DNA of 64,000 nt from Armatimonadota bacterium (GTDB taxonomy: Bacteria; Armatimonadota; UBA5829; DTLH01): positions 7,861 through 71,860 of the forward strand of contig JBDKSP010000011.1 in assembly GCA_039680575.1 (NCBI GenBank), read 5' to 3'. Below, one piece after another: positions 4,999 to 51,404 of this stretch; position 1 is the first letter of the stretch; the number at the start of each line of letters is the position of its first letter. The translations under genes were made by a program, and so were the position numbers. The notes beneath the pieces were generated by a model. It was not told the origin of the DNA. It did no database searches and saw nothing but the letters and a program-made list of their open reading frames with translations.

Positions 4999-5088
4999 GT
5001 TATATGAACCAGGCGTATCCGATTGTCAGTGCGGTAATGTTCAGACCATGATTCGGATAATCCGGATTTACATGTTCAACTGCGCTCA

Positions 5089-7688: not shown

Positions 7689-7739
7689 TACAACTCCAAC
7701 AACAATCAGACGCGAATGCAGTTCTTTACATAGCATGCA

Positions 7740-18120: not shown

Positions 18121-18123
18121 GCA

Positions 18124-18813: not shown

Positions 18814-18814
18814 A

Positions 18815-21364: not shown

Positions 21365-21368
21365 TATT

Positions 21369-22591: not shown

Positions 22592-24145
22592 GTATTCCCC
22601 ACACACGTGGGGGTGAACCGCGGAGTTGCAGCGGCAAATGGCACAGATACAGGTATTCCCCACACACGTGGGGGTGAACCGCATTGGAATCGCGCTGTGC
22701 GGCGGCCACAAAAGTATTCCCCACACACGTGGGGGTGAACCGAGCCTCCAGAACCCATCCCACAGCAGTTACGAGTATTCCCCACACACGTGGGGGTGAA
22801 CCGATGTTTTCATTTCCCCTGCTCCTCCTTCAGATGTATTCCCCACACACGTGGGGGTGAACCGTTTATGCAGGCTACGGCCGATCTTTCCGCTGGGTAT
22901 TCCCCACACACGTGGGGGTGAACCGGGTCAATTCCTCATTTTCACGCACTAGTGATTGTATTCCCCACACACGTGGGGGTGAACCGGCCTTGAGCACTGC
23001 TGTTTCGAGTTCTGCCCTGTATTCCCCACACACGTGGGGGTGAACCGTCCGGGGTGTTGTGGTTTGTATCAACTCAGGTGTATTCCCCACACACGTGGGG
23101 GTGAACCGCAGCTCGAGCTTGCGGAAAAGCAGCAGGAGTTGTATTCCCCACACACGTGGGGGTGAACCGTCATCCGCAAACCCGATAGCGACGGTGTCGC
23201 CGTATTCCCCACACACGTGGGGGTGAACCGCCGACTGTCCGGGTAGATATGCTCTGCTATAAGTATTCCCCACACACGTGGGGGTGAACCGTTAGGGTCA
23301 CTGTAGGCACAATTCTGGCCTTGGTATTCCCCACACACGTGGGGGTGAACCGATATATTGTCCGCTGAACCGTGGGACGACAGCGTATTCCCCACACACG
23401 TGGGGGTGAACCGAACATACTTGCCGTTGACCATCCCCCAGCCGTGTATTCCCCACACACGTGGGGGTGAACCGAACTGTGCAGGGTATTGGATCGCCGG
23501 CGTCACGTATTCCCCACACACGTGGGGGTGAACCGGGGAGACAGAATCATGAACGAGCAAATACACAGTATTCCCCACACACGTGGGGGTGAACCGGTTC
23601 GCAGGTGGTTTCACGCATAAACTCAACCGTATTCCCCACACACGTGGGGGTGAACCGGGTCGCCACTCTTTCTGGCATTCAGCCGGTCAGTATTCCCCAC
23701 ACACGTGGGGGTGAACCGCAGTGCTCCCTGAGTTCCAGCGAAGCACCGTCGTATTCCCCACACACGTGGGGGTGAACCGGGAGTGCGGTGAACCCGCTGC
23801 CCCTCCAGACTGTATTCCCCACACACGTGGGGGTGAACCGACTGCCGTGAGCACAGAGAACGCTAAAACCGCGTATTCCCCACACACGTGGGGGTGAACC
23901 GCGTGTCAGCATTCGTTCGCGCAGCAGTGCAGAGTATTCCCCACACACGTGGGGGTGAACCGATAGTACCGGCACTGAAATACCGGTGCTGAACGTATTC
24001 CCCACACACGTGGGGGTGAACCGGACAAGGACAAGTTCCACTGCTTGGACGCTCTGTATTCCCCACACACGTGGGGGTGAACCGATGTAAAGGCGCAAAA
24101 CAATCTACACGAACTAGTATTCCCCACACACGTGGGGGTGAACCG
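22592..24145 (+). CRISPR. Type I-E CRISPR array with 26 identical 29-bp repeats (GTATTCCCCACACACGTGGGGGTGAACCG) and 25 spacers of 32 bp
   Basis: Strict 61-bp periodicity was counted directly. The repeat shares the I-E consensus architecture (G.TTCCCC...GGGG.TAAACCG-like) with a CACGTG-containing hairpin core. It is on the same strand as the cas genes. The minus-strand ORFs in the ORF track with recurring HPHVCGEY peptides are artefacts of repeat translation. Confidence 0.97.
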
Positions 24146-24161: not shown

Positions 24162-26534
24162 CTAATCCCGTTGTTTTCTTCTCACTATCAGCATCCCGGC
24201 TATGAATGCGAGCGAGGAGAAATACAGGATCATTCCGGTCCGGTATGGTGTGTTCACGTACTCCATTCTTATATCATGTTTGCCTTTGGGGAGGTATACC
24301 GCCCGGAACAGGTAGTCTGCGCACAGGACTTTTACGGGTTTTCCGTCTACCCATGCCTGCCACCGTGGGTAATATACCTCACTGAAGAACAGGTAGCCGT
24401 TTGACGCCATATCAGCCTTAACATCGAGCCTGGTATCCGAGTAGGACGTAATTACTGCCCGGTCTTTTGCCGGATTGCCCGGAACCCGGCGAATTACGTT
24501 TCTGTTTTCGAGTATTATCGTCTTTTTTGGATCAAAGTCCGGCTCTTTTATCTCTTTAAGCGCTGCGTCGGGACTTTCCGCAAGTGTCGCGCTGTGAACG
24601 GTGAAAACTCTCGGAAGCCAGTTCCTGTTGTAGTAGACAAATGACTTTCCCGCGTGGATTTCCGCAAGATGGCTGCCTGTCAATCGCTTCGTGGATAGCA
24701 CATACTTTACGTTGAGCAGGCCGACCAAAGGGGAATCATGCCGGGTAATATCAGCGCTCACTCCGACATACGCAGGCGTGTTCTGGATAGCTCCTGCGTA
24801 GGCTGCGTAACGGCCTATTGAAGTGGGATAATAGCCGTTGACGCTCTCCAGCCCGTCAAAAACCCCCTGGGCGTATTGAAATGAGTCCGTGTCCATAGGA
24901 AGTATGCGGAAGCGGTCGCTGTCGGCTTTGATGATATTTATCGCCATTCTGTCCCCGGAAGTATAGAATTTCCGCGCGTTTGTGGTGAAAAGCAGCGGAT
25001 CGGCATAAAACCACAGGTCGATAAACGATAATGCGATGAGTGCGGTCGCGGCGGCATTAAGACTGATCCATTTTCGCGTAAGAGCAGTGACTGCTAGAGT
25101 CCCTAGCGCAATAAGCGCCGCAGTCCAGGCAAGTCCCGATAGCTGCATCGCATAAAGTCCTGCCAGTTTGCCCATAACGGCTTCGGGGTTGCTCCTGGTA
25201 GAGCCGATAATGCGTTCGGCGTGCGATAATATAATGCCTTTTGCCGCCCACCAGGCCACGAGGGAGATAATTACGGCGAGAAACGAGAAAGCCATGACCT
25301 TCCTGGCCAGCACAGCCTTGCCTTGTGCGTTTTGCGTCTCCGGTTCGATGGCAGCGAGTCGCGGAGACCTGAGCCTGACCGATGATGAGATCACTATATC
25401 AGTTCCGTAAGCCGCAAGCCCCGCCATTGCGAATGTATAGAGGTAAAGTATCTTGCTTGGAGCCCGGATCATACTGAAACCGGGGATTTTGTATATCAAT
25501 TTGAAGAACGGAGTATAATCACCGAGCGCGATCAGGATAGATAAAATGGCAAGCGCCTTGAAATATCCCGCGCGGGAGTCACGCATACCGAAAAATGCGA
25601 TGATAGCGAGAATGAACGGCAGAATGCCGATGAACATCGATCCGTCCCAGTAAAGCGCGCCGAAAGCGGAGTTTTCCTGCACCGGGCTGCCCCAGAACGA
25701 GGGCGCTATAGCAGTGACGAGCTGTGCAGGAGCGAGCGAAAACGAGGATGCGAAGCTGTAGTCCGTGCCGCCTCCACGGTTGGAAAGCGCTGTTGATTCT
25801 AAAAACTGCAGGATATATGGAGAGGATATAAAAAACGTGAAAAGAAAGGCTATTACAGCGAGACCAGCGTAAACCGGGACCAGGTTGAGCTTTCGTTCTT
25901 TGGCAACCATCGGCAAAACGCGCCAGATAAAGAAGATGGCCATAGCCAGCCCGGTGTAGTAGACATATTGTGGGTGCAGCCCAAGCAGTTGAAACCCCAG
26001 GACCACACCGGTCAGAGCAGCATACCGGAACTGCCTTGTCTCGACAGCTTTGTCAAGGAACAGAAACGTGAGTGGTATCCACACGCCCGACCAGATTGCG
26101 CCGCCATGACCCGCGTATATCTTCGAGATAAAGAACGCTGAGAACCCGAAGGCCATTCCTCCGATGATGGAGCCCGTATTGCTGCGTCCGAACCTTCGCA
26201 TGAGCATGTACATAAAGACCGCGGCTCCGAATATATGGATGATATACCGCCATGTCATCTCTCTTGGGAGCGGCATTGTCAGGCACAACCAGTCCAGAGG
26301 GTAAAGAGGTATAGCGGATGTGAGAGGAAAGCCGCTCATCATATAGGGGAACCAGTCAGGTCTCACTCCGCTTTGCACAGCATGGCTGAAATACCAACTG
26401 AACGGGTAACCCTGCGTAACGATATCCATTCCGAAAATAGTACCCGGTCTGAAAATGACATTGTGGAAGATCAGCAGAGTCGAAATGGCGAAAAGCACAG
26501 CTACGGATGGACCGAAAGCAGCCTGTTTTTTCAT
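24162..26534 (-). CDS. YfhO-family GT-C-like membrane glycosyltransferase
   Basis: 790 aa with more than 12 TM helices. The C-terminal soluble domain carries the YYPRWQAWVDGKPVKV...LPKGKHDIRMEY motif characteristic of the YfhO family. It lies in a glycan locus with a GtrB-like GT2. Confidence 0.65.
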   Translation of the reverse strand: MKKQAAFGPSVAVLFAISTLLIFHNVIFRPGTIFGMDIVTQGYPFSWYFSHAVQSGVRPDWFPYMMSGFPLTSAIPLYPLDWLCLTMPLPREMTWRYIIHIFGAAVFMYMLMRRFGRSNTGSIIGGMAFGFSAFFISKIYAGHGGAIWSGVWIPLTFLFLDKAVETRQFRYAALTGVVLGFQLLGLHPQYVYYTGLAMAIFFIWRVLPMVAKERKLNLVPVYAGLAVIAFLFTFFISSPYILQFLESTALSNRGGGTDYSFASSFSLAPAQLVTAIAPSFWGSPVQENSAFGALYWDGSMFIGILPFILAIIAFFGMRDSRAGYFKALAILSILIALGDYTPFFKLIYKIPGFSMIRAPSKILYLYTFAMAGLAAYGTDIVISSSVRLRSPRLAAIEPETQNAQGKAVLARKVMAFSFLAVIISLVAWWAAKGIILSHAERIIGSTRSNPEAVMGKLAGLYAMQLSGLAWTAALIALGTLAVTALTRKWISLNAAATALIALSFIDLWFYADPLLFTTNARKFYTSGDRMAINIIKADSDRFRILPMDTDSFQYAQGVFDGLESVNGYYPTSIGRYAAYAGAIQNTPAYVGVSADITRHDSPLVGLLNVKYVLSTKRLTGSHLAEIHAGKSFVYYNRNWLPRVFTVHSATLAESPDAALKEIKEPDFDPKKTIILENRNVIRRVPGNPAKDRAVITSYSDTRLDVKADMASNGYLFFSEVYYPRWQAWVDGKPVKVLCADYLFRAVYLPKGKHDIRMEYVNTPYRTGMILYFSSLAFIAGMLIVRRKQRD

Positions 26535-26566
26535 CTTGATACACGGCCTCCTTTAAGAGGTTGCAA

Positions 26567-27727
26567 TTACTTATGTGCCGGCTTCAGCAGGCCGAGCATA
26601 GTTGCGCCGATTTTGGCGGCAGTCGCGGTATTGAGCAGCATATTGGAGTAGGCCTGGTTGGCGAGAGGACACCAGCAATTGCCTTTCTTTATGTATTGCC
26701 GGATTTCATCCGCGCGCGGCGAGCGCCAGATCCTCCAGAAGTCGTAATCATAATCCGAGAGTCGTCCCATCGACTTGTCATACCCCAGTACGCAGCACGG
26801 CCATACGTCTCCATAGGGGCTGATGTGAACATTCGATATTCCTCCGTAGCAGGGCAGCACCTGTTTTCTCTCGTGCAGAATACGTACGACGAGATTGTAA
26901 TAAACGAGTCTCGATGCGCTTATCTGCTTTCCGAGCTTTCCGGCTTCTCTCAAGTGCCTGCGGCTTTCATCGGAGAAAGCCCGAATTGCCTGTTCGTAGT
27001 CATCCGCGGTCGGGGTGATCGAGTCTTCCTCGTTGAACATCTCGCTTCTCTGCTCGGCAATCTCGCTTATGTAGCTGTCCAACCCCAGAAGGTGAACGAA
27101 ACGGGCGACTTCTCTGATATTATGCACGTTATAGCTGGATATGACCGTTCCAGCGCCGACCTCCAGGTTCGAATAGCGCTCTTTCAGCTTTTTCAGCCGG
27201 TTTATGGTCTCCAGCAGCTTATCGAAGTTACCGGGGACACCTCGGATCTCGTCATGTGAGTCTCCCACGCCATCGAATGAAGGCTTGACGGTAAACATGA
27301 CCTGTCTTTTGCTTGCTTTAAGCCGTTTCAGGATATCTTCCGTCATTGCGACTATCCGGTCGGTCAGGATGGCGTTCGTCGGAGTATGGATAACCCCAGG
27401 CGTGAGCAGTTCATTAGCGAGTTCCACTATCTGAGGGAAATCTTTTCTGAGGAATGGTTCGCCGCCGCTCATATTGACAAAATAGACGTGTCCCAGGCTC
27501 TTGAAAAGCCTCTCGAAGTCTCCGAGCGTCATTTCGTCTTTCAGGTTTGTGCCGCACTCGCCGCGATACATATCCCATATATTACAGGTCTTGCATCTGG
27601 ACTGGCACATGTTGGTGACGGAAAGGGTGATGTTTATGGGACGGCCCGGAGACACCATACCCAATCGGGCCAGTTTATAGTTCATCGTCCTGGGAAGTAT
27701 GTCAGTTATCAGCGCTTTAGGGGTCAT
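26567..27727 (-). CDS. Radical SAM enzyme with a C-terminal SPASM/twitch-like Cys cluster
   Basis: CQSRCKTC is a CX3CX2C motif located about 40 aa from the chosen start. The C-terminus has PCCV and CWCP cysteines. The start was trimmed to ATG 27727, 22 bp after the upstream flippase stop; the six-frame ORF extends further to 28000. Confidence 0.7.
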   Translation of the reverse strand: MTPKALITDILPRTMNYKLARLGMVSPGRPINITLSVTNMCQSRCKTCNIWDMYRGECGTNLKDEMTLGDFERLFKSLGHVYFVNMSGGEPFLRKDFPQIVELANELLTPGVIHTPTNAILTDRIVAMTEDILKRLKASKRQVMFTVKPSFDGVGDSHDEIRGVPGNFDKLLETINRLKKLKERYSNLEVGAGTVISSYNVHNIREVARFVHLLGLDSYISEIAEQRSEMFNEEDSITPTADDYEQAIRAFSDESRRHLREAGKLGKQISASRLVYYNLVVRILHERKQVLPCYGGISNVHISPYGDVWPCCVLGYDKSMGRLSDYDYDFWRIWRSPRADEIRQYIKKGNCWCPLANQAYSNMLLNTATAAKIGATMLGLLKPAHK

Positions 27728-27749
27728 ACCACCAACAGTTAGCCTCCGT

Positions 27750-29396
27750 TTATTCTTCAGCACCTTTACCCGGAACTGCTGAGGCGTAAACATGCCCGGC
27801 AGAAGGATTAAGCATCGATTTTGCTGAACGGTACGATTCTCTATCGAGAGAAACAGCGATGAGCGGATACGCGATAAGCGTGAGTATAGCCGATCCGAGC
27901 GCTGTAGCAAGCCCGCTCGGAAGTATGAGTGCTGCAATGGCAAACGAGGCGCCGACAGCGCATAATGAGCTGAAAAGCGGGTGTTTGAACATCTCCGCAT
28001 ATCCGCCCACAGTCATATCCAGCATCTTGACGACCTTCCAAAGCGCCATGCTTGTGCCGATAATGTAGGCACAGGTGAAAAGGACCGCAACACCAGCCGC
28101 ACCGAACTTTATCGCAACCGGATAGACAAGCGGCGCCGCGATGCCGAGCTGCAGGAAGTTAAGCCGGTACACCCACTTGGGCTCACCCATGGCCATAAAA
28201 ACGATCCCTGCTGTCGCGCCGATAGACCGGAACATCCCGTAAAACGCAAGTATTCTGAAAAGCGGTATAGCAGGAGCCCATTTTCTTCCGAAAAACCCCA
28301 GCACGAAGTCGCTTGCCGCAAGCGCCAGCCATATCGCTGCCGGGAAAGAGAGCATCGAAATGCTCTTCACGGTCCGAGTGTATGCTCGTCTCAAGGCCGG
28401 TATATCATTGTTCAGTTTCGAGTAAGTAGGAAACATCACTTTGTTGACGATGTGAGTGATATTCGTCGCGGGCAGGTTGCAGATGGTATAGGCAAGGCTG
28501 TAGTAGCCGAGGATAGTCACGCCCAGCCATCTCCCGATAGCCGCGTTGTCGATATAGAAAAAGGCAAGGAACAGGAATGTGGCTGCCATCAGCGGTTTTC
28601 CGAAACTGAGTGTGCGTTTGGCGCTTTCTTTATGAAAAGATGCAACCGGCTTCCAACCCGCGACTGTCCAGGTGACAATGGCGGATATTGTAACGCTTGC
28701 CAGATGTCCGATTACGAGGCTCCATACTCCGAGCCCTTTGTAAGCGAGCGTGATCGAAACGGCTGCATAGGAAAGACCCATCGCAAGCTCCGGCAGCGCC
28801 CGCCTTTTGAACTCAAGGTCTTTTTCCAGAAGAGTCGAAGGGACTGTCGCAAGTGAAGATAAAACGACTGAAAAGCTCATTATCCTGAGCGGCCAGATGA
28901 ACGCCGGTCCGCCGAACACCATTGAGATAAGCGGGCTCGCTGCATAGATCACAGCCCATGCGCTGAAGCCGAATATTGCGCTCATCAGAAATGTCGTTTC
29001 GGCGTTTTTCTGCACATCGGTCTTATGGTAGATAAGCGCCTGGCCGAATCCAAGGTCGCGGAAGAGTGTCAGCGCGGTTACGATCATTGTCCCAAGTGCG
29101 AACAGCCCGAATACGGATGGAGCCAGCAGCCGTGCAAGCACGATTGTCACCAGAAACTGCATTATCCTGACGGTAATCGCGCCTGTAAACGTCCAGCCGA
29201 CTCCGGTAATTACGTTTCTGCCAATAGTTTTTTTCATATAGTCCGCCTGATAGTCAGTGTCGTTGTGTTTTGGAATCTGTTCGATCTTGAGCCGGTCGGC
29301 TAACGTCGCCATGAGATGCCGCTCAATGAATCCTGCAGCGCCTGTTACGAGCGTTTTTATTTTCCGAAAGCAGTTACCGCCAGACTCCTGCGGCAA
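27750..29396 (-). CDS. MOP-superfamily polysaccharide flippase (Wzx-like)
   Basis: 548 aa with about 12-14 TM helices and the usual Wzx layout. Confidence 0.7.
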   Translation of the reverse strand: MPQESGGNCFRKIKTLVTGAAGFIERHLMATLADRLKIEQIPKHNDTDYQADYMKKTIGRNVITGVGWTFTGAITVRIMQFLVTIVLARLLAPSVFGLFALGTMIVTALTLFRDLGFGQALIYHKTDVQKNAETTFLMSAIFGFSAWAVIYAASPLISMVFGGPAFIWPLRIMSFSVVLSSLATVPSTLLEKDLEFKRRALPELAMGLSYAAVSITLAYKGLGVWSLVIGHLASVTISAIVTWTVAGWKPVASFHKESAKRTLSFGKPLMAATFLFLAFFYIDNAAIGRWLGVTILGYYSLAYTICNLPATNITHIVNKVMFPTYSKLNNDIPALRRAYTRTVKSISMLSFPAAIWLALAASDFVLGFFGRKWAPAIPLFRILAFYGMFRSIGATAGIVFMAMGEPKWVYRLNFLQLGIAAPLVYPVAIKFGAAGVAVLFTCAYIIGTSMALWKVVKMLDMTVGGYAEMFKHPLFSSLCAVGASFAIAALILPSGLATALGSAILTLIAYPLIAVSLDRESYRSAKSMLNPSAGHVYASAVPGKGAEE

Positions 29397-30531
29397 CTGC
29401 CGACGGCTTGTAGTCCTGCTGTCCCAGGTATACCTTTTCTACCTGCTCTATCATCCTGTCCAGGCCGAAGAGCGCAGTAACACGTTCCTTGCCTGCTCTG
29501 CCCATCGCTTCAACGCGTTCCTCTTTGAAGATGCTGTAGATCGACGATGCGATAGCGGCAGGATCATGGACAGGAACGATACAGCCGGTGAAACCATCAA
29601 TTATCGTTTCGCTGATTCCAGATACATCGGGAGCGACGACCGGCAGCCCTGCGGCCATTGCTTCAAGCGCTGCAAGAGGGTGTCCTTCCCAGAGTGATGA
29701 CATTGCGAATACATCGAACGCCGGGAGGATTTCGGGTATATCGCTTCTGAACCCTGTAAAGATAACCTTGTGAGCTATCCCCAGATCCTGCGCTAGACGT
29801 TTTACCTCAGGCAGTTCTTCTCCATCCCCAATAAGCACGAAAACTACGTCATCGAGCTGTTTATGCAGGATTGTTGCTGCCCTGACCAGATCACCCAGGT
29901 TTTTCTGCTTCGTGAACCGCGCCGCTGTCCCTACAACGCGGCAGCCGGTCGGGATCATAAGTTTATTTCTGGCGTGGCATTTACTGACGGGTTTTTCGTA
30001 TTTGGTAAGATCTACCCCGCTGTGTATGGTAGTTACGCGATAATCGGGGACTCCTTCGTCTATGGTCATCCTCCTGAGATCGCTTGACACCGTGATAATC
30101 GTGTCCGTCCAATTAGCAAGCTGCTTGTCTGACCATTTATATACATACTCAACGGGTTTTCGGACTGCGCTATATCCGTGGATGAGGTCGGTGGACATAG
30201 AGTGGACAGTATGGACGATCTTCCTGCACCCGGCAAGCCTCGCTGCGATCCGCCCGGTAACACCGGCGCGTACTCCGTTGGTATGCACCACATCGAACCC
30301 ATTTTGTTTTATGGCTTTTGCAAGGTTGATGATTGTCGGTATGTCCGGGTAGCGATGGTACTCTGCGTGTATGATGGGTATTTCTGCCGCCATGAGGTTC
30401 TTATAGAGCTTCTCATGATTGCAGGATACGGCAACCTCATGTCCTTTTTCCCTCATGCCGACCGCCAGATCGTATACATACCTCGCCTGGCCTCCGAAAG
30501 CCGGCGCGCCATCTATCTGAAGAATTTTCAT
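29374..30531 (-). CDS. Glycosyltransferase family 4
   Basis: The GT-B fold motif EGHPLAALEAMAAGLPVVA (the EX7E region) is present. Length 385 aa. Confidence 0.85.
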   Translation of the reverse strand: MKILQIDGAPAFGGQARYVYDLAVGMREKGHEVAVSCNHEKLYKNLMAAEIPIIHAEYHRYPDIPTIINLAKAIKQNGFDVVHTNGVRAGVTGRIAARLAGCRKIVHTVHSMSTDLIHGYSAVRKPVEYVYKWSDKQLANWTDTIITVSSDLRRMTIDEGVPDYRVTTIHSGVDLTKYEKPVSKCHARNKLMIPTGCRVVGTAARFTKQKNLGDLVRAATILHKQLDDVVFVLIGDGEELPEVKRLAQDLGIAHKVIFTGFRSDIPEILPAFDVFAMSSLWEGHPLAALEAMAAGLPVVAPDVSGISETIIDGFTGCIVPVHDPAAIASSIYSIFKEERVEAMGRAGKERVTALFGLDRMIEQVEKVYLGQQDYKPSAVAAGVWR

Positions 30532-30548
30532 CTGGATTTATCCTTCCC

Positions 30549-32042
30549 TCAGTGCCTGTTTTTGATACCGGGAGCCATGACTGCCGCGATTTTGGATATA
30601 TCCTCTTTCGTTATTTCACGCATCGCAGCAAGCGCAAACGCGTAGACCGTAAAAAGGATGACGTAAGTCCCTACCAATTGAAATCCTCGTGCAGGCAGTA
30701 CTCCCGCGGCGAAATAGACCATCATCCCTGATATAATTATTCTGAAAGCGGAGACAGGCGCAATGAGTCCGCCCAGTCTTCCCGCGCAAATCGCGGCGGA
30801 TGTCAAAAGGCCGACGCCCGCCGTTGATACCGATGCGATAGCCGCTCCCGTTATCCCAAACTTGGGGATAAATACCATATTGAGCGCAAATGCTATTGCA
30901 ATCAGGATAGTAGTACCCAAAAGCGGCGTTCGTATATCGCCAATTGCCACCGATATGTTATAAAGCGCGTGAAGAAACCCGAAAAGCATCAAGCCGGCTG
31001 CAAGTATTGCAAGCGCGGGAGCCGCGGCCATGTATTTATCAGTGTAAAGCATCTCGACTGTACCTGCCGATGTGCCGGACAAGACGGCTGTGACCGGTAC
31101 CAGCAGCAGCATATGGAGCCTGAGTGCCTGGCGGACATACTGGTGTATCATTTCGTAATTATTTCTGCTTGCTGCATGTGAGATCGCGGGCAGAGTAGCC
31201 GTAGCGATTCCGATCAGTACATAAAACGGCGCTCGTGCGAGGGTATTGGCGGCTGTGTAGAAGCCGGTGCTTTCCGGCGTTTGCATAAGCGCCTTTACAG
31301 CAAACATATCTATGTTGATCAGGAGTGTAAATCCGATGGAAAGCGCCGCGGTACCGCCTGCGTAACGGATCAGCTTTTTTATAGGATATAGATCGACTTT
31401 AGGCAGTGTTCCGGCAAGTATTACGGCTACCGCAAGCCCCCCGACGGATGCGAGTATATTTCCGATGATTGCGCCTCGTAATCCGAAACCGAGCATCACC
31501 AGAAGAAGTACCGTCCCAACCTTTGAAATGGCATATGTAAGCATAGCGGCAGATTGCTTCGCATAGTTTCGCTTGCCATTCAATATAGCCGTGTAGCAAA
31601 AATAGAACGCATAGACAGGTATATCGAGAGATGCGAGCCGGACAAGCCTGGTGAGGTTCGGGTCATGAAGCAGACTTGCGATCCAGGGAGCCGCGATCAT
31701 TGCAATAACGAATAACAGCGCGCTGAAAATGAGCTGTCCACGCATCGCGGACCGGGCAATCGAAGTCATCAGGTCTTCCCGCTCTGAGCCGAATTTCCTG
31801 ATTGCATACGGGAAGCCGCCGGTCAGAGAGACTTCCATCCATATAAGAAACGCCATGACTATCCCGAACAGACCGTAATCCGCCGGTCCGAGCTTACGCC
31901 CGAGGTAAAAATGGACGACATATCCACCGATCAGGAATGCTGACTGCACTCCGACAAGTGAGATCGTTCCACGGGCAAGACTGTCTTTGCGGCTGGCAGT
32001 TATATCAGATGCTTCGACGGCCATCTGCTCCTCACATCGCAA
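30549..32042 (-). CDS. MOP-superfamily polysaccharide flippase (second copy)
   Basis: 497 aa and polytopic. It is a paralogous class to 27750-29396. Confidence 0.7.
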   Translation of the reverse strand: MRCEEQMAVEASDITASRKDSLARGTISLVGVQSAFLIGGYVVHFYLGRKLGPADYGLFGIVMAFLIWMEVSLTGGFPYAIRKFGSEREDLMTSIARSAMRGQLIFSALLFVIAMIAAPWIASLLHDPNLTRLVRLASLDIPVYAFYFCYTAILNGKRNYAKQSAAMLTYAISKVGTVLLLVMLGFGLRGAIIGNILASVGGLAVAVILAGTLPKVDLYPIKKLIRYAGGTAALSIGFTLLINIDMFAVKALMQTPESTGFYTAANTLARAPFYVLIGIATATLPAISHAASRNNYEMIHQYVRQALRLHMLLLVPVTAVLSGTSAGTVEMLYTDKYMAAAPALAILAAGLMLFGFLHALYNISVAIGDIRTPLLGTTILIAIAFALNMVFIPKFGITGAAIASVSTAGVGLLTSAAICAGRLGGLIAPVSAFRIIISGMMVYFAAGVLPARGFQLVGTYVILFTVYAFALAAMREITKEDISKIAAVMAPGIKNRH

Positions 32043-33252
32043 GGATTGCTTTTATTATTTCTTCAGGGTCCGGCGGACATCCGGGTATGTGAATGATGTT
32101 TTTCGGTATCTCCTCGTAATTTTCCAGCAGGTCGCGGGCGCAGTCGCCGCTTATCAGGATCTTCTGGTTTTTCCTGAACTCCGGCATGCGGTTTCCCCGT
32201 CCGCGTACGACATCGATCCGTTTGAAAAACATGTAGTACGCCAGTTTCGGGATGAACATCCAGTATTTCGGGGTCCTTCTGGCAAGCCTGAACGCCTTAT
32301 GGAACGCCTCATCATCCAGATGGCACGCGCGATGGTTTCTCCATACGTATAAGTTGTGGTTTTTCTTCACGTCCTGCGGCGCGGGATCGAATACGGCTGC
32401 GAGTGACTCGATGCTCATTCCCCGTACATCTGTTTCCCATCTTCCAAGTCCCAGACTGATGGCGCGTTTGATGTGCAGGACTTCTTCGGGGTCCGCTCCC
32501 ATCAGCTTTGCTCCGACGATGTCTGTTTCTACCATATTTTTACCGACCAGGAGCACCCCCATCGGTTTTGGGTGCCCCAGTATCGGTCCGTTTCCTTCCA
32601 TCGCCAGTATTCCGTCTACTACGGTCATATGCGGTCGAACTGCTCTTGCGAGCTGTGCAATCGGCTCATGCAGACCGAGCCGGTGGTACATCTGCCTGTC
32701 TTTGAACGAAAGCAGCCCCCACTGGTTCTTCATAGTGAGCGAAACGGTGGTCCGGTTGTGTGTTTTCAGCTTCGCTACATTGATGTATATGTCAGATTCC
32801 AGCATGGGAGTAGGAACGGACATATAGCCACAGTAGTAGTTTTGGAGTTCATCATCTTCATAATAATTAGGCAGGTTCCTATAGCCATAGCCGATACTGA
32901 CATTAGTTCTGAGCGCGTCGAACAGGTTCAGGAGTCGGGCGTTCTTGCGCTTGGCAAGGTCCGCGTAACCAGTGACTTGAAAAGTCTTTTGGGGGTCGAC
33001 CCCGAGCGCCGGAGCCTCCGCAATCGTGACATCCCGCACTCCCGAATCGTGCAGAAGGTCGATTATGCTTTCCACAACAACGGGATGAACGACAACACCC
33101 GTTTCCGGCGCAAAGGCCTGAACGAGGTTTACTTTGAGGACAGCCTTTCGAGCTCCATCGAAGCTGACCCCGGCTTCCTTCATCCCTTTTGCTATCTCGG
33201 ATTTGATGGCATCCAGATTGTAATGCGATACTGCGCTTAGATATACCGACAT
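32032..33252 (-). CDS. DUF362-domain protein
   Basis: The start is trimmed to MSVYLSAV so that it abuts the upstream gene's stop at 33276. The LKVNLV motif is comparable to the KPNL signature of DUF362. There is no ferredoxin-like tail in this copy. Confidence 0.55.
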   Translation of the reverse strand: MSVYLSAVSHYNLDAIKSEIAKGMKEAGVSFDGARKAVLKVNLVQAFAPETGVVVHPVVVESIIDLLHDSGVRDVTIAEAPALGVDPQKTFQVTGYADLAKRKNARLLNLFDALRTNVSIGYGYRNLPNYYEDDELQNYYCGYMSVPTPMLESDIYINVAKLKTHNRTTVSLTMKNQWGLLSFKDRQMYHRLGLHEPIAQLARAVRPHMTVVDGILAMEGNGPILGHPKPMGVLLVGKNMVETDIVGAKLMGADPEEVLHIKRAISLGLGRWETDVRGMSIESLAAVFDPAPQDVKKNHNLYVWRNHRACHLDDEAFHKAFRLARRTPKYWMFIPKLAYYMFFKRIDVVRGRGNRMPEFRKNQKILISGDCARDLLENYEEIPKNIIHIPGCPPDPEEIIKAILAM

Positions 33253-33275
33253 CTCACCCTCCAGAAAATCAGCGC

Positions 33276-34391
33276 TTATGACTTGAATGATTGCTTTATC
33301 GTTACTGCTCCATTCGGGCACATGTTTACACACATAAGGCAGCGGGCTTTGCTGCACTGTCCATAGTCCAGTTTTTCAGACTCGATGTCTATGGCATTCA
33401 CCGGACACGCGGCTGCGCAGGCATCGCAATAACTGCACCTTTTCCAGTCGATGACAGGGTGAATACCGAACCTGGAATGAAACCAGGGTATAAGGCTCTT
33501 CACTCCGAAATTTGATAAGTAATGGTCGCTCGCATAGACCGTTGCGTATAAATGCCGGTACAGGTTTTTGCGGAGTTTGCTGCTTCCGGCTGCTATATCT
33601 ACCGGCTCGACCTCATCGCCGGCTATATCGATCAGCGGGGAGCGCCCACGGGCTGCGAGCTTTAGGTGCTTTACATCCGATCTTTCAAACCCCAATAACT
33701 TCGAGGCGAACAGGTCCAGAGCGAGCATATCTGTCGATGCGGCAATTACACCCATGCTCATATATTCTCCATAGACCGCACCCGAGACCGGAATGACCAG
33801 CCCTTCCATTACCGACATTACCGGGCGAAACAGCTTGTAGAGCGCTGCGATTCCGGCATCCAGCCCCTTGGCGTGTACCTCCCGCCTGCTGCTCTTATGA
33901 AGCATACCGAAACAGTTCTTGATTGCCAGGCTCACATCGGTCAGCTTGTGACATTTCATCTTTGGGACGTTTACGATAGCTTCTGACTCTACTGCGGTCG
34001 CGGCTATCTTCACTCGCCTGATCCTTGGGTGGTCGAATGGGACTTCTATATATCTATCCTCTTCGAAGTTTACGACCTCGACCCCAAGCTGTTGGGCGAG
34101 GTCTCTTATTCCCAGGATGTCAAATGTAGTATAAGAATCATATTCAAAACCTGAACAATCGCCTATTACAGGAGTAGCGCCGGCATCTATGATTTCCTGC
34201 ACCACTGCAGCCAGAACATCGAAGTTGGTTACAGCGGCAGGTACCGGCGCGACCAGATTCGGCTTGACCAACACAGTCCAGCCGGGACGGATATTCTCCT
34301 TCAGGCCGCCCGATATCGAGATCGCTTGCCTGCAGGCTGCGACAATATTCTCCGTGCCTTCCCCGACCTTTACAACAGCTACCGTTGCCAT
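33276..34391 (-). CDS. DUF362-domain protein with a C-terminal 2x[4Fe-4S] ferredoxin domain
   Basis: TVLVKPNLV motif in the N-terminal region. The C-terminus has CSYCDACAAACP and CLMCVNMCP, which are two CX2CX2CX3CP clusters. Confidence 0.65.
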   Translation of the reverse strand: MATVAVVKVGEGTENIVAACRQAISISGGLKENIRPGWTVLVKPNLVAPVPAAVTNFDVLAAVVQEIIDAGATPVIGDCSGFEYDSYTTFDILGIRDLAQQLGVEVVNFEEDRYIEVPFDHPRIRRVKIAATAVESEAIVNVPKMKCHKLTDVSLAIKNCFGMLHKSSRREVHAKGLDAGIAALYKLFRPVMSVMEGLVIPVSGAVYGEYMSMGVIAASTDMLALDLFASKLLGFERSDVKHLKLAARGRSPLIDIAGDEVEPVDIAAGSSKLRKNLYRHLYATVYASDHYLSNFGVKSLIPWFHSRFGIHPVIDWKRCSYCDACAAACPVNAIDIESEKLDYGQCSKARCLMCVNMCPNGAVTIKQSFKS

Positions 34392-35366
34392 CTATAGGTA
34401 CCCCTGATCTATGTACCATTCGACTGTTTGCTGTATTCCGTCCGAAAGGCTGACCTGTGGTTCAAAACCTAGTGTCTGCTCTGCTTTGGATGTGTCGGAT
34501 GCATGATCACGGGTGAAAAAGTTTACCTGGTATCTGGTCAGAGGCGGCTCATGGTTGAGAATTCCCGCCGCGGCTTCAGCACCGTAAGCTGCAAGTTTCG
34601 CAAGGATAACCGGCACATTTTTGCGTGTAGACCTCAATCCAAGCGTATTGGAGATGACCTTGGCGAGTTCGAAAACCGTAACAGGCCTGGGACCTGCTAT
34701 GTTGAATATTTCACCGAATGCGGCAGGGTTCTCCATCGTGATAAGGCATCCACTGACAACATCGTCCACATAGGTAGGGTGAAGCAGGCTTCTTCCGCTG
34801 CCGATAAGCGGGAAACGGTCTTCCTTTATGGCTTTGAACAGCTTGAGCTTGTGCAGATCTCCCGGACCGTAAACGAAGTCCGGCCTTATTACAGTCACGG
34901 CAACATGATTATTCTTGTGATAGGCAAGCGCTGTCTTCTCTCCATCGCATTTGGTGCGCTCGTATAGCGCCGACGGTCTGTAAGGCAGGCATTCCGGCGC
35001 AACCCCGGACATACCGACCACACCGGGGGTGCTGCAGTGTATGACTTGCCGGACGTTATTCCGTTGACAGGCTTCCAGAAGGACTCTAACGGCCTGAACA
35101 TTGACTTGCCGCATCTCATCGACCTTTACCGCCTGTCCCCCGAGTTTCGCTGCCAGATTGAAAACCACATCGACATTCCGGCAGGCTGCAGAGACTGATT
35201 CAGGATCGACCAGAGAGCCTTTTTTTATCTCGACACCGTTAGAACTAAGCCTCTCATAGTTGCTGCTCTCACGCACGATAGCACGCACCTCATGTCCCGA
35301 TCTGAGGAGTGCCTGCACCAGATGTCCTCCGATAAACCCTGTAGCGCCCGTTACCAGGATCAGCAT
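34392..35366 (-). CDS. NAD-dependent sugar epimerase/dehydratase (SDR family)
   Basis: Rossmann motif LVTGATGFIGGHL and a catalytic YxxxK motif. The length of 324 aa is typical of UDP-hexose 4-epimerases. Confidence 0.85.
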   Translation of the reverse strand: MLILVTGATGFIGGHLVQALLRSGHEVRAIVRESSNYERLSSNGVEIKKGSLVDPESVSAACRNVDVVFNLAAKLGGQAVKVDEMRQVNVQAVRVLLEACQRNNVRQVIHCSTPGVVGMSGVAPECLPYRPSALYERTKCDGEKTALAYHKNNHVAVTVIRPDFVYGPGDLHKLKLFKAIKEDRFPLIGSGRSLLHPTYVDDVVSGCLITMENPAAFGEIFNIAGPRPVTVFELAKVISNTLGLRSTRKNVPVILAKLAAYGAEAAAGILNHEPPLTRYQVNFFTRDHASDTSKAEQTLGFEPQVSLSDGIQQTVEWYIDQGYL

Positions 35367-36502
35367 CCGGTACCTCCTGCTTCGCTCACAAGGCTCTCTA
35401 TAGCCTCGACAAGCCTGCTCCAGGAGAACTCTTCTCTAAAAGCTGATATATTGTCGATGAACTCCCCGGCTTTATCCTCTTCAAAGAACCTGACCACTGC
35501 GCGCGCAAGCGCGTATGAGTCCTCAGGGGACACTACGTACCCTGTTTTTCCATCAATGACGGTCTCGGGCAGCCCTCCGACGTTCGTGGTGACGACAGGC
35601 CTGTCGAACCCGTATGCGATCTGCGCGATTCCGCTCTGTGTGGCGGTGACATAAGGCAGGACAACCAGGTCTGCAGCAGAGAAATACATCCCGACGGCCT
35701 CGTTAGGGATATATTCATCCGTAATCTTGACGCAGTGATCTATCCCAAGGTCTTTTATCAGCCGAACATACTTCTCTTTACCGTCGTAGAACTCTCCTGC
35801 TATGACAAGTACGGCATTTACCGATGAAAGGATGGCTGGCATTGCCTCTATCAGATATTTCAACCCCTTATACTCCCGTACGAGGCCGAAGAAGAGTATT
35901 ACGTTCTGATTTTGGCTCAGTCCCAGTTCGCGCCGGGCAGTATCCTTCGATATCGGCTGCTTCCTAAACACCTCGTAGGTTGGGTGGCGGGCTTTCCGCA
36001 CCTGCGCATTTGGCAGAATATCCTTCAGGTTTATGGTGTCTTCTTCCGAATGAGTAATGAACATGTTTCCCTTGCCCAGGGCATATTTCGTGAAAAGTCT
36101 GACCGGTCCGCTCTTTTCGTGCGGCAGCACATTGTGGCACAGGAACATTACCTTGGTGAATTTGCGGCATAGCGCTGCTAACGACCCGAAAGCCGGTGCA
36201 AAAAACGGATGCCACCACTGTATGATGACCAATTCGGGTGAATATTCCCGTATTCTTTTCGCCGCGTGTGACCATGACAGAGGGTTCATTGAATCGACGA
36301 GCGGTTCGGCTCCTTCAACCACCAATTTTACTGCGCTTTCATCCCTTTGGGTCTTGCCGGGAAAAAGCAGCCGGGGATACTGGCGTGACATCGACACAAG
36401 CTGCACTTCATGTGACTCCGCAAGACTTTTGCAGAGTAATGCAGTGTAGTGTGCGATTCCTCCCCTGAAAGGAAATGAAGGCCCGACAACAATGATACGC
36501 AA
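35360..36502 (-). CDS. Glycosyltransferase family 4
   Basis: GT-B C-terminal domain with GGLPETVIDGKTGYVV. Confidence 0.85.
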   Translation of the reverse strand: MRIIVVGPSFPFRGGIAHYTALLCKSLAESHEVQLVSMSRQYPRLLFPGKTQRDESAVKLVVEGAEPLVDSMNPLSWSHAAKRIREYSPELVIIQWWHPFFAPAFGSLAALCRKFTKVMFLCHNVLPHEKSGPVRLFTKYALGKGNMFITHSEEDTINLKDILPNAQVRKARHPTYEVFRKQPISKDTARRELGLSQNQNVILFFGLVREYKGLKYLIEAMPAILSSVNAVLVIAGEFYDGKEKYVRLIKDLGIDHCVKITDEYIPNEAVGMYFSAADLVVLPYVTATQSGIAQIAYGFDRPVVTTNVGGLPETVIDGKTGYVVSPEDSYALARAVVRFFEEDKAGEFIDNISAFREEFSWSRLVEAIESLVSEAGGTGC

Positions 36503-36559
36503 ATCAGTCCTATGCCCCTGTTTTTATGATCTATTTGATTGCTTATACCAACATCGATA

Positions 36560-37627
36560 CTATATCCACGGTCTGGCAGCTTCAGATTCCGGATTTTTCT
36601 TGCAGATTGCCTGTGCCGATTTGCCCGTTATCCTGCACACCTGAGATTTCTCGTCCTTGTTCTGGCGCGCGATCATCTCAGCCAGCAACCCATGGGAAAC
36701 GAACTGTACACCGAGGATCATCAAAAGGACGCCCAGCATAAGGAGCGGCCTGCGTCCTATCGCCGCGCCTCCGATCCAGATTGCGGCGAGGTATATGTTG
36801 ACTACAGTCCCGGCGAATAGAAGCATCAGGCCTAGAGAGCCGAACAGGTGAAGAGGTTTTGTGGTGTACCGGGTAATGAAGAGTACGGTCAGCAGGTCCA
36901 GCAGCCCGCGTGTGAACCTGGCTATGCCGTATTTCGACTTCCCGAACTTTCTGCTCCTGTGGTTCACTTTGATCTCAGCCACGCTGAACCCGCTTCCGAA
37001 CGCCAGCGCCGGGATATAGCGGTGAAGCTCGCCATAAATTTTGACATTCTCGATGACCTCACGCTTATATGCCTTGAAACCGCAGTTGAAGTCGTGCAGC
37101 TTCAATCCGGTGGTCATCGATGCTACTTTGTTGAAGAGCTTGGATGGAAGTGTTTTTGAAATAGGGTCCAGCCGCCTGAACTTCCACCCGGAGACCATGT
37201 CGAAACCTTCCGAAAGTTTCGAAAGGAAGTTTGGTATCTCCTTGGGGTCGTCCTGAAGGTCCGCGTCGAGGGTAAAGACAATATCACCGCTCGCTGCCTT
37301 AAACCCTTCTGTGAGAGCTGCGGCTTTACCGAAATTACGGCGCATGTATATGGCTGTGACCCGTGGATCAGTTTCACACAAGCGCGTGAGGATGTCGGCT
37401 GATCCGTCTGTGCTTCCATCGTTGACAAATATGATCTCATACCTGCAGCCAATGTTGTCCAGCGTGCTCGTTAACTCTTCATAAAGAGTTCCAAGACTCT
37501 CTTTTTCGTTGTAGAGTGGGATTACTACGGATATTGCCTTTTCCACTGCAGTTTTGTTGGACTCATCAGCGACGTATCCGGCCTGTCTCTCCACTGCTGT
37601 TGCCTCCTTGACATAAAAGAACCCCAC
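36560..37627 (-). CDS. GT2 polyprenyl-phosphate glycosyltransferase (GtrB/ArnC/CsbB-like)
   Basis: N-terminal GT-A domain (VVIPLYNE..FVNDGSTDGS..DAD) followed by two C-terminal TM helices. This is the architecture of UndP-sugar synthases. Confidence 0.8.
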   Translation of the reverse strand: MGFFYVKEATAVERQAGYVADESNKTAVEKAISVVIPLYNEKESLGTLYEELTSTLDNIGCRYEIIFVNDGSTDGSADILTRLCETDPRVTAIYMRRNFGKAAALTEGFKAASGDIVFTLDADLQDDPKEIPNFLSKLSEGFDMVSGWKFRRLDPISKTLPSKLFNKVASMTTGLKLHDFNCGFKAYKREVIENVKIYGELHRYIPALAFGSGFSVAEIKVNHRSRKFGKSKYGIARFTRGLLDLLTVLFITRYTTKPLHLFGSLGLMLLFAGTVVNIYLAAIWIGGAAIGRRPLLMLGVLLMILGVQFVSHGLLAEMIARQNKDEKSQVCRITGKSAQAICKKNPESEAARPWI

Positions 37628-51271: not shown

Positions 51272-51404
51272 GTCTCCCGGAAGGGCAAATGAGGCATCTC
51301 TGATGCCGGGTGATCGGTTGAGGTCGAATAACCGGGATCAGAGATCCCTATCCGGCCTATGCGGGCTGGATTGCAAATACGCCCGAGAAAAAGGAACAGG
51401 TTCA

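Follow-up and report, generated by a model that had tools for sequence, protein, structure and literature searches.

The locus described here points to an uncharacterized, oxygen-independent modification of a sugar. It lies at positions 24162–37627 of the window (the whole 64-kb stretch of DNA that was analyzed) from an Armatimonadota bacterium, where ten tightly packed genes occupy the minus strand. These ten genes form one operon, and we consider that it probably serves the polyprenyl-phosphate-dependent glycosylation of an extracytoplasmic acceptor, in which a sugar would be modified in the cytoplasm before the glycan is flipped. A radical SAM enzyme (rSAM), an SDR, a GT4 (GT4b), and a GT2 from this operon constitute a cassette that recurs in other genomes. 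An earlier note on this DNA had described ten co-directional glycan and redox genes, and this description was borne out: each of the ten domain assignments was recovered in Pfam with a score at or above the gathering score. The genes are listed below from the first to the last.

36560..37627, minus strand: predicted GT2 polyisoprenyl-phosphate glycosyltransferase (ArnC/GtrB/PgfS-like), first gene of the operon (Pfam Glycos_transf_2, 121 bits)
35360..36502, minus strand: GT4 glycosyltransferase "GT4b," core cassette partner of rSAM (Pfam Glyco_trans_1_4, Glycos_transf_1)
34392..35366, minus strand: extended SDR (S...YxxxK), core cassette partner (Pfam Epimerase, 137 bits)
33276..34391, minus strand: DUF362 protein (predicted LarA fold) with a C-terminal 2x[4Fe-4S] ferredoxin domain, "DUF362Fer" (Pfam DUF362, 145 bits, and Fer4)
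32032..33252, minus strand: second DUF362 protein (LarA-fold family) with a C-terminal Cys3-His (..GCPP) extension (Pfam DUF362, 147 bits)
30549..32042, minus strand: MOP-superfamily flippase (MurJ/Wzx-like) "WzxB" (Pfam Polysacc_synt_3, Polysacc_synt, MurJ)
29374..30531, minus strand: GT4 glycosyltransferase "GT4a," variable inner module (Pfam Glycos_transf_1, 130 bits)
27750..29234, minus strand: MOP flippase (WzxC/TuaB-like) "WzxA," whose ORF reaches 29396 (Pfam Polysacc_synt_3, 253 bits)
26567..27793, minus strand: radical SAM enzyme with a predicted Twitch-type auxiliary-cluster domain, from an unnamed glycan-associated family (Pfam Radical_SAM, 56 bits, and SPASM, 32 bits)
24162..26534, minus strand: putative YfhO-family GT-C-type membrane glycosyltransferase, last gene of the operon (Pfam YfhO, 47 bits)

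The coordinates of the ten genes correspond to exact ORF limits, and likely true starts lie inside the ORFs at ~29234 for WzxA, at ~33252 for the DUF362 protein without Fer4, and at ~27793 or 27727 (M92) for rSAM, whose ORF extends to 28000 and whose public gene call is 408 aa. The intergenic gaps range from -11 to ~140 nt, and the block has a CRISPR array as its left border and a divergent GAF gene as its right border. The whole gene order recurs on three other contigs (L001, L084, and L085) with 45–76% protein identity and different flanking genes, and because the same order is found at this level of identity, the arrangement is not a matter of chance. The synteny is retained in relatives without a CRISPR neighbor, and when the locus, which abuts CRISPR-Cas, was compared with the PADLOC models of known anti-phage defense, the sole match was a weak one between the generic radical SAM core and pVip (E 3e-8). 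An SLBB (Wza-like) protein is encoded 5 kb from the locus. In the 64-kb window, no GtrA was found, and no ORF of at least 150 aa had a Pfam domain of a phosphoglycosyl transferase (PGT), Wzy, or a chain-length regulator (Wzz), genes that could lie elsewhere in the genome. Of the parts of a Wzx/Wzy-dependent pathway, the window thus contains only Wzx-like flippases.

The earlier note had called rSAM a radical SAM/SPASM enzyme. The full SPASM domain is defined by a seven-cysteine motif, CX9-15GX4C-gap-CX2CX5CX3C-gap-C, through which two auxiliary clusters are bound (PMC6231123). The radical SAM part of the call stood, and the full SPASM part was rejected: the CX2CX5CX3C half is absent, and only CX12GX4C(C) and CXC are present. 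A Twitch domain is a truncated SPASM with one cysteine on each side of a beta-hairpin and another after helix alpha-2', and it holds a single auxiliary cluster. Five cysteines of rSAM are invariant across 27 sequences (C-x17-CC-x38-CxC), and in the structural model a beta-hairpin at residues 321–332 is followed by helices. Because half of the SPASM motif is missing and these five cysteines are invariant, rSAM appears Twitch-like, and its auxiliary domain is predicted to bind one cluster. The closest solved fold is that of the sugar decarboxylase BlsE; the fold matches include SkfB, BlsE, MoaA, and BtrN, and SkfB, anSME, and SuiB are near fold neighbors. The family also has invariant motifs of its own, EIAEQRSE and CXC. 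In an NCBIfam search, no model came near its cut-off for the Cys-rich (redox) proteins of the locus, and no anSME-like full SPASM was present; these proteins fall outside the characterized families.

The rSAM family is unnamed and comprises ~1,450 clusters at 50% identity. To count its neighbors, we used 42 genome loci flanked by at least 5 kb of sequence on each side, and a gene was regarded as a partner when it was on the same strand and within 6 kb of rSAM. An SDR was a partner in 28 of these loci, a GT2 in 25, and GT4b in 25; all three occurred together in 17, and at least one of them in 36 loci drawn from many anaerobic phyla. Beyond the 42 loci, flippase and UDP-glucose dehydrogenase neighbors were still present. 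Family members are also fused to other domains, as in GT2(+TM)-rSAM (three cases), GT4-rSAM (P0263), LPG_synthase_TM-rSAM, rSAM with a PTPS_related membrane domain (PF10131), and rSAM-FAD_binding_6, and some of the fusion partners are lipid-flippase-like membrane domains. These observations strongly support rSAM as a widespread core partner of GT2, GT4, and SDR across anaerobic bacteria and archaea. In a small number of loci (L022 and L044), the family member stands alone, and in Cloacimonadota the family gene adjoins nusB. The redox genes travel with the glycosyl genes across relatives, as the neighborhood check proposed in the earlier note was meant to establish, and the family is located mostly in glycan loci, so the premise that such loci normally lack radical SAM proteins was overstated. 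The grouping of three redox proteins with YfhO as one set held for the rSAM core and failed for the rest: the DUF362 module is present in only 6 of the 42 loci, and YfhO is interchangeable with a PMT_2-type GT-C, which takes its position in L002 and L038.

The glycosylation machinery was identified with varying depth. In NCBIfam, GT2 matched ArnC (E 7e-63) and PgfS (2e-42), both under the equivalog cut-offs, and among solved structures it was closest over residues 29–327 to ArnC (9bhc/8vxh, E 5e-57), followed by GtrB (5eke) and DPMS (Dol-P-Man synthase; 5mlz). It has a GT-A GT2 domain, resembles ArnC/GtrB along its whole length, and has TM helices in its C-terminal part (267–313); it is predicted to be a polyisoprenyl-phosphate glycosyltransferase, and its orthologues in L001 and L085 are 70–72% identical. 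WzxA matched NCBIfam PRK10459 (E 1.5e-70) and has a 495-aa orthologue in L001 (74% identical); WzxB has ~12–14 hydrophobic segments and orthologues in L001, L004, and L085. The YfhO gene matched PF09586 (E 1.4e-12, 47 bits against a cut-off of 28.5) through its C-terminal 80 residues only (model positions 755–834), with weak matches to PgfM1/PgfM2. Its product has a polytopic N-terminal part, a ~280-aa soluble domain, and a terminal TM helix, and this topology, together with the above-threshold match, argues for membership of the YfhO family; the orthologues in L001, L084, and L085 are likewise called YfhO. No solved structure related to this protein was found. A "GMDIVTQGYP" stretch was seen in its N-terminal part. 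GT-Cs of the YfhO family are expected to have a catalytic acidic residue in the first loop outside the cytoplasm.

Among the partners, GT4a is absent from L001 and present in L084 and L085, where an extra GT2 and a PMT_2 then occur. The best NCBIfam matches of the SDR (OleD, HpnA, and SdmB) were all below cut-off, and its closest solved structure was the UDP-GlcA 4-epimerase of B. cereus (E 2e-29). UDP-glucuronic acid 4-epimerases are recognized by a Ser/Tyr/Lys triad, a carboxylate-binding Thr/Ser network, and Arg185; in the SDR, the Tyr and Lys align, T126-S127-S128 is replaced by T-P-G, and the R183-Q-R185 segment is deleted, and this assignment was rejected. Because its nearest PDB sequences are nucleotide-sugar enzymes, the SDR may only supply a donor sugar and not reduce a lipid-linked ketone.

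The two DUF362 proteins form a minority accessory of the cassette. The eight cysteines of DUF362Fer are invariant, and its AF2 model (pLDDT 92.7) was compared with Foldseek, in which the top 18 PDB matches were all LarA, malate racemase, or LarA-like (probability 1.00, ~250 aligned columns, TM ~0.43); a LarA fold is thus predicted from the model. At the sequence level, DUF362 gave no detectable match to solved LarA proteins, and the Pfam DUF2088 model did not match the DUF362 protein. In LarA, the cofactor is bound by Lys184, His200, and Arg75, and His108 and His174 are catalytic (PMC11770544). Residues K146, H148, K158, N159, and H173 of DUF362Fer are conserved (K158 and H173 without exception, and H148 almost always), and the second DUF362 protein has the same K/H/K-N/H motif. 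What the DUF362 proteins share with LarA is the predicted fold and the Pfam clan (DUF2088; CL0471); their conserved H-x9-K-x14-H pattern resembles LarA H174/K184/H200 in sequence spacing. No equivalents of LarA R75 or H108 were identified. The DUF362 proteins differ from LarA in their extra 2x[4Fe-4S] or Cys3-His modules, the latter represented by C310, C371, H388, and C392, invariant in six orthologues, and the cofactor-synthesis genes larB, larC, and larE are not found in the 64-kb window. Relatives of DUF362Fer with at least 33% identity were found only within the rSAM glycan cassette, i.e., it is a narrow subfamily seen in ~15% of cassettes. Other phyla have a different gene where the second DUF362 gene would lie: in L004 and L038, this place is taken by a Gfo/Idh/MocA sugar dehydrogenase whose closest match is UDP-GlcNAc 3-dehydrogenase.

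Our statements on function derive from homology, from the genes nearby, and from fusions. Cell walls, lipopolysaccharide, and surface proteins are decorated by lipid-carrier glycosylation, in which GtrB/ArnC acts first, a flippase second, and a GT-C last. In the pathway that we propose, the following steps have strong support: the ArnC/GtrB-type GT2 would form a polyprenyl-monophosphate sugar, which the two soluble GT4s would probably extend; the two MOP flippases would move the lipid-linked glycan across the membrane, and the YfhO-type GT-C would transfer it to the acceptor. Neither a signal peptide nor a convincing TM segment is present in rSAM, the SDR, the two GT4s, or the two DUF362 proteins. 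As the three redox proteins are among these, the modification is expected to be cytoplasmic and to precede flipping and transfer; of the two timings entertained in the earlier note, only the one before transfer is therefore retained. At the cytoplasmic face, rSAM may abstract a hydrogen atom from the sugar of a lipid-linked (or nucleotide-linked) intermediate. Our leading guess is that a secondary alcohol would be oxidized to a ketone, with the electron passing to the auxiliary cluster, followed by stereo-inverting reduction by the SDR; direct epimerization, or radical decarboxylation of the BlsE kind, are alternative chemistries. The two DUF362 proteins with their predicted LarA fold, both of which carry Fe-S or metal sites, may add a lineage-restricted redox module that oxidizes a sugar C-OH or shuttles electrons to or from rSAM. 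Several points count against the proposal, among them that the usual cargo of MOP flippases is diphosphate-linked, yet no priming PGT was found in the window, and that some members of the rSAM family stand alone.

The leading chemistry would be an oxygen-independent counterpart of the epimerization by mycobacterial DprE1/DprE2, an oxidase and an SDR-type ketoreductase that convert decaprenyl-phosphoryl-ribose to -arabinose at the cytoplasmic face for use by GT-C enzymes. Both systems would modify a polyprenyl-monophosphate sugar in the cytoplasm through an oxidase and an SDR before GT-C use, the reaction here being hypothetical; the oxidant is a flavoenzyme there and would be a radical SAM/Twitch protein here, with no sequence relationship. 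The GtrA/GtrB/GtrC, CsbB/GtcA/YfhO, S. mutans PgfS/PgfM1/PgfE/PgfM2, and ArnC/ArnEF/ArnT systems resemble the locus in combining an ArnC/GtrB-type GT2, which has TM helices at its C terminus, with a flippase step and a GT-C, and the Pgf and Arn systems also encode an SDR alongside. In contrast to the three-component systems, the locus has two MOP flippases in the role of the GtrA- or ArnE/F-type small flippase, and it has two cytoplasmic GT4s, which suggest an oligosaccharide rather than a single sugar; those systems have neither a radical SAM protein nor LarA-fold Fe-S proteins. The sugar-acting Twitch/SPASM enzymes BlsE, DesII, and BtrN are 15–17% identical to rSAM and belong to antibiotic pathways, where their substrates are nucleosides, TDP-sugars, or aminocyclitols, whereas the rSAM family is found in surface-glycan loci and in fusions with GT2, GT4, or membrane domains.

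Other readings of the locus were weighed. An unlikely one takes rSAM as a BlsE-like decarboxylase that would convert a lipid- or nucleotide-linked hexuronic acid to a pentose; the GT-C would thereby receive an Arn-like pentose donor, and the uronic-acid epimer would come from the SDR. It is very unlikely that the locus is an ordinary Wzx/Wzy-type exopolysaccharide or O-antigen cluster, in which the Fe-S genes would be there incidentally or would encode generic electron carriers, without any new sugar chemistry. The presence of two Wzx-like flippases and of two GT4s would fit such a cluster, as would the SLBB protein and the inner module, GT4a(+GT2+PMT_2), which differs among relatives as in serotype loci. 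However, Wzy, Wzz, and a priming PGT are all absent from the window, the redox genes hold their position at 45–76% identity, and the linkage of rSAM to GT2/GT4/SDR spans phyla and extends to GT fusions.

We regard as still less probable a cassette that builds or remodels a membrane glycolipid head group, in which rSAM might be responsible for carbocycle formation, as has been suggested for calditol or hopanoid cyclitol ethers: the named NCBIfam matches are all far under their cut-offs, and the ArnC/GtrB-type GT2, the GT-Cs (YfhO and PMT_2), and the MOP flippases are hallmarks of polyprenyl-carrier glycosylation. The view that rSAM is a maturase of peptides or proteins (sactisynthase-like or anSME-like) that strayed into the locus and has no relation to the glycan genes draws on the fold proximity of SkfB, anSME, and SuiB and on the Pfam SPASM call, but it is largely refuted and scarcely credible. 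RiPP radical SAM maturases have an N-terminal RRE (RiPP recognition element) and an adjacent precursor gene. The rSAM model contains no RRE, with a single N-terminal helix ahead of the core, and no precursor-peptide gene was found nearby; the conserved small ORFs in 83 loci were all shadow ORFs, except nusB. A sulfatase gene is also absent, the seven-cysteine motif is incomplete, and the glycosyltransferase linkage is conserved, with fusions in addition.

To our knowledge, the carrier-linked sugar modifications known so far are hydrolytic or flavin/NAD-dependent. No description of an rSAM/DUF362 glycan-modification pathway was found in the searchable literature, in agreement with the earlier note, which held that no pathway of this type is established. 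A broader version of the polyprenyl-phosphate proposal, which we put forward as doubtful, is that epimerization of the carrier-linked sugar by rSAM and SDR (or decarboxylation by rSAM alone) is widespread in anaerobic bacteria and archaea, with the DUF362 proteins as the first LarA-fold enzymes to act on a glycan intermediate, possibly depending on a nickel-pincer cofactor. For DUF362, a large family of uncharacterized function, the locus provides a defined biochemical setting and a link to LarA-type hydride transfer that can be tested. As a family of ~1,450 clusters is wired into cassettes across anaerobic phyla, and is sometimes fused to GTs, we infer a common, uncharacterized surface-sugar chemistry in anaerobes. 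The cultured carriers of the rSAM family, namely Desulfosarcina variabilis, delta proteobacterium strain NaphS2, and Pelotomaculum terephthalicicum, offer an entry point to this chemistry.

Ten minus-strand ORFs, all in the same direction, fill window positions 24162-37627. For this locus, the earlier note had proposed an undescribed sugar-modification pathway in which genes for YfhO/GtrB-type glycosylation are combined with three redox proteins, and its domain calls were all reproduced by Pfam at or above the gathering score. The ten genes, with the names used here for their products, are as follows.

36560-37627, minus strand, gene 1: ArnC/GtrB-type glycosyltransferase (GT2)
35360-36502, minus strand, gene 2: GT4 glycosyltransferase (GT4b)
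34392-35366, minus strand, gene 3: extended SDR
33276-34391, minus strand, gene 4: DUF362 protein with a 2x[4Fe-4S] ferredoxin tail (DUF362Fer)
32032-33252, minus strand, gene 5: second DUF362 protein
30549-32042, minus strand, gene 6: MurJ/Wzx-like MOP flippase
29374-30531, minus strand, gene 7: second GT4 glycosyltransferase (GT4a)
27750-29234, minus strand, gene 8: WzxC/TuaB-like MOP flippase
26567 to about 27793, minus strand, gene 9: radical SAM protein (rSAM)
24162-26534, minus strand, gene 10: YfhO-family membrane protein

Judged by the lengths of the orthologues, the likely start codons of three of these ORFs are internal. The spacing between the genes ranges from a slight overlap to about 140 nt, and promoter and terminator scans of the locus remained at chance level and were uninformative on the operon limits. 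A deposited protein from an Armatimonadota MAG is identical to one of the DUF362 proteins.

The glycosylation genes form a frame of a known kind, GtrB/ArnC-type carrier glycosylation. The full length of GT2 aligned to solved ArnC structures (E 5e-57), followed by GtrB and an archaeal Dol-P-Man synthase, and these alignments, together with the transmembrane helices at its C-terminus, identify GT2 as a polyisoprenyl-phosphate glycosyltransferase; its scores were below every NCBIfam equivalog cut-off. The last gene exceeded the Pfam YfhO threshold in its C-terminal part only, its predicted topology was as expected, and no relative was found among solved structures. When all ORFs of at least 150 aa in the window were scanned, no priming phosphoglycosyl transferase, Wzy or GtrA-type flippase was detected. 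Based on these results, the frame is a route from GtrB through a flippase to a GT-C enzyme, supplemented by a pair of soluble GT4 enzymes and a pair of MOP flippases.

The redox genes belong to this glycan pathway, as the earlier note had supposed, and synteny, linkage to GT2, GT4b and SDR across phyla, and gene fusions all support this. The gene set and order were confirmed, and the whole ten-gene order was found again on three other contigs, one from an Armatimonadota MAG (L001), with proteins 51-76% identical to those of the window, and two (L084 and L085) with proteins 45-70% identical; the genes flanking these loci differ from those of the window. In L084 and L085, an additional GT2 and PMT_2 pair lies beside GT4a. 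The inner module between the two flippases varies: it comprises GT4, GT2 and PMT_2 in these two loci (L084:13650-17374 and L085:7002-10599), the window has only the GT4, and L001 has no gene there, which looks as if a second carrier-sugar branch had been gained or lost in steps.

The rSAM family is widespread, with more than 2,000 indexed homologues, and when 1.84 billion representatives were searched with its profile, 1,447 clusters at 50% identity were matched (E ≤1e-30). We fetched 80 genome loci of this family and clustered the neighbouring ORFs; the sources were bacterial (Desulfobacterales, Planctomycetota, Chloroflexota, Gemmatimonadota, Clostridia, Fermentibacteria, Cloacimonadota and Omnitrophota) and archaeal (Methanosarcinales, Bathyarchaeota and Methanomassiliicoccales). 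Among the carriers in culture are Desulfosarcina variabilis (L021), strain NaphS2 (L018) and Pelotomaculum terephthalicicum JT (L060). For the neighbour counts, we took the 42 loci in which rSAM has 5 kb or more of sequence to either side and considered genes of the same strand no farther than 6 kb away. SDR was found in 28 of the 42 loci, GT2 and GT4b in 25 each, and a conserved 279-aa protein without a family match in 16, followed by DUF362 (6), DUF218 (5), YfhO (4) and LPG_synthase_TM (4). GT2, GT4b and SDR were all present in 17 loci, and at least one of them was present in 36. The radical SAM gene had been regarded as exceptional in a glycan locus, whereas these counts show it to be a common partner in anaerobes. 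The typical order is GT2-GT4b-rSAM-DUF218-SDR-unknown in Desulfobacterales, GT2-GT4b-SDR-LPG_TM-YfhO-rSAM in Fermentibacteria, and GT2-GT4b-SDR-DUF362Fer-Gfo/Idh/MocA-(flippase or pyruvyl transferase)-rSAM-GT-C in Chloroflexota, Gemmatimonadota and Sedimentisphaerales. In one locus outside the counted set (L047), a flippase and a UDP-glucose dehydrogenase are neighbours of rSAM, and a few family members are solitary. The protein of about 279 aa (e.g., L020:9130-9966 and L003:12199-13014), a companion of rSAM and SDR that does not occur in this window, matched nothing in Pfam or NCBIfam and has a possible methyltransferase-like motif. Seven Cloacimonadota loci (L066-L068, L074-L076 and L079) carry an rSAM relative about 40% identical in a nusB-GT2-rSAM order without SDR or GT4, which may be a reduced or otherwise distinct version of the cassette.

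The strongest single argument comes from fusion proteins. Among the profile matches, GT2 with two transmembrane helices is joined to rSAM in three separate clusters, and a GT4-rSAM fusion was also found. Other members are fused to LPG_synthase_TM (49% identity to the window protein) or to a PTPS_related membrane domain (PF10131). These fusions to glycosyltransferases and lipid-flippase-like membrane domains indicate that rSAM works on a lipid-linked sugar or directly beside one. One further fusion, rSAM-FAD_binding_6, adds a reductase domain, and its existence shows that the family makes use of dedicated redox partners. The fused or intein-bearing relatives are P0148, P0156, P0242, P0263, P0268, P0270, P0274 and P0285, one of which is split by an intein.

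The motifs TNxCQSxCxTC, SGGEP and EIAEQRSE are invariant in the rSAM family, as are five C-terminal cysteines arranged as CX12GX4C(C)...CXC, of which the CXC resembles that of SkfB. The SPASM domain is defined by a seven-cysteine motif that includes a CX2CX5CX3C half (PMC6231123). Because this half is absent, a full SPASM domain was rejected, and the auxiliary domain is Twitch-like, with one auxiliary cluster expected. The fold neighbours of rSAM include SkfB, BlsE, MoaA and BtrN, a set that Foldseek also returned, and they put it in the SPASM/Twitch group, where sugar-acting members are found, without fixing the reaction. No NCBIfam model came near its cut-off on rSAM.

DUF362, a Pfam family of no known function, shares clan CL0471 with the LarA N-terminal domain. 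The model of DUF362Fer was confident (pLDDT 92.7), and its top 18 PDB matches were all LarA-family structures; HMMER searches of PDB sequences with the DUF362 proteins and the DUF362 domain profile gave ferredoxin-domain matches or nothing. Both paralogues and their relatives keep K43, N45, K146, (H148), K158-N159, G162, H173, G208 and D226. In LarA, H174 is the catalytic histidine, K184 the cofactor-tethering lysine and H200 a nickel ligand (PMC11770544). The spacing H148-x9-K158-x14-H173 appears to resemble that of these three residues, and we treat it as a lead only. The C-terminal extension of the second DUF362 protein (window 32032-32400) has invariant C310, C371, H388 and C392 in a '..HIPGCPP' context that recalls the cluster-binding motif of NuoB, so this protein may also bind a metal or Fe-S centre. 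When metagenomes were scanned with the ferredoxin-tailed subfamily as the query, only relatives of at least about 35% identity occurred with SDR, GT4b and GT2, and 30 longer loci with relatives at 25-30% identity had no glycan genes; among the genome loci, relatives as low as 33% also lay within the cassette. Glycan linkage of the entire DUF362-ferredoxin family was rejected, since at 25-30% identity the contexts of the relatives are unrelated. From this split in identity, the glycan-linked DUF362Fer is a narrow, cassette-tied subfamily, and only about 15% of cassettes have it. In L004 and L038, the gene at the position of the second DUF362 protein encodes a member of Gfo/Idh/MocA whose nearest matches are UDP-GlcNAc 3-dehydrogenase and inositol 2-dehydrogenase, and oxidation of a secondary alcohol of a sugar is thereby suggested as the role of the module.

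The best NCBIfam matches of SDR were the lipid-acting reductases OleD, HpnA and SdmB, all below cut-off, and the nearest solved protein was the UDP-GlcA 4-epimerase of Bacillus cereus. The catalytic Tyr and Lys are kept, but the Thr/Ser carboxylate network is replaced and the Arg185 segment is deleted; this identity was rejected because the carboxylate-binding residues are missing. No dehydratase-type acid/base pair was present in the SDR sequence, and a plain keto-reductase or epimerase role would fit best.

The redox proteins of the locus are all cytoplasmic by sequence analysis. Of the two timings left open by the earlier note, this puts the modification before transfer, not after it. GT2 would load a sugar onto polyprenyl phosphate, the GT4 enzymes would extend it, and rSAM would abstract a hydrogen from the sugar at the cytoplasmic face, before flipping by the MOP proteins and transfer by the YfhO GT-C. 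As a tentative lead, rather doubtful in itself, rSAM may oxidise an alcohol that SDR then reduces with stereo-inversion. The pair would then be an oxygen-independent analogue of DprE1/DprE2. The main alternative for rSAM is a BlsE-type decarboxylation. The DUF362 module might contribute a second oxidation or electron transfer.

If rSAM were a stray peptide maturase, its position among glycan genes would be incidental. Its AF2 model (pLDDT 84.7) has a lone helix ahead of the core and no RRE, and no conserved small ORF was found alongside the rSAM gene in the family loci; a RiPP role is unlikely on both grounds. A RiPP or anSME-type maturase was rejected, there being no RRE, precursor gene or sulfatase, and a stray maturase is essentially excluded. 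To regard the locus as an ordinary Wzx/Wzy cluster leaves unexplained both the conserved, fused redox genes and the missing phosphoglycosyl transferase and Wzy. A glycolipid head-group pathway is possible, but is a poorer fit to the GT-C and ArnC-type genes. A defence system, considered in view of the adjacent CRISPR locus and a Pfam match to GT4-conflict, had no support from PADLOC and was rejected.

No description of the cassette was found in the searchable literature, and to that extent neither the LarA-fold Fe-S module nor the conserved radical SAM partner has been described. The proposal of an undescribed pathway is partly supported: the redox genes are part of it, with the DUF362 pair restricted to certain lineages. 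Within glycan biosynthesis, the rSAM family is a large group of enzymes that is uncharacterised and can be tested.

The left neighbour of the locus is a complete type I-E cas operon at 13934-22590 (cas3, cse1, cse2, cas7, cas5, cas6e, cas1 and cas2), which the syntenic glycan loci of relatives do not have. A CRISPR array at 22592-24145 consists of 26 perfect 29-nt repeats (GTATTCCCCACACACGTGGGGGTGAACCG) with a period of 61 nt and no degenerate terminal repeat. It begins 1 nt past the cas2 stop and ends 16 nt short of the stop codon of the yfhO-like gene, so that neither end has space for a normal leader. On the right, a divergent GAF-domain gene is followed by enolase and pyruvate kinase, and past these, 5 kb from the locus, a protein with three SLBB domains (Wza/polysaccharide-export-like) is encoded at 42502-43398. 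Elsewhere in the window are three consecutive plus-strand ORFs (414, 199 and 240 aa) without a Pfam match at 16-2558, efflux systems at 2645-7736 (ABC-2 permeases, HlyD and OEP) and 57976-62669 (HlyD and an AcrB-type RND pump), an HNH endonuclease at 51303-51986, and an MrfA-like helicase at 54491-56773.
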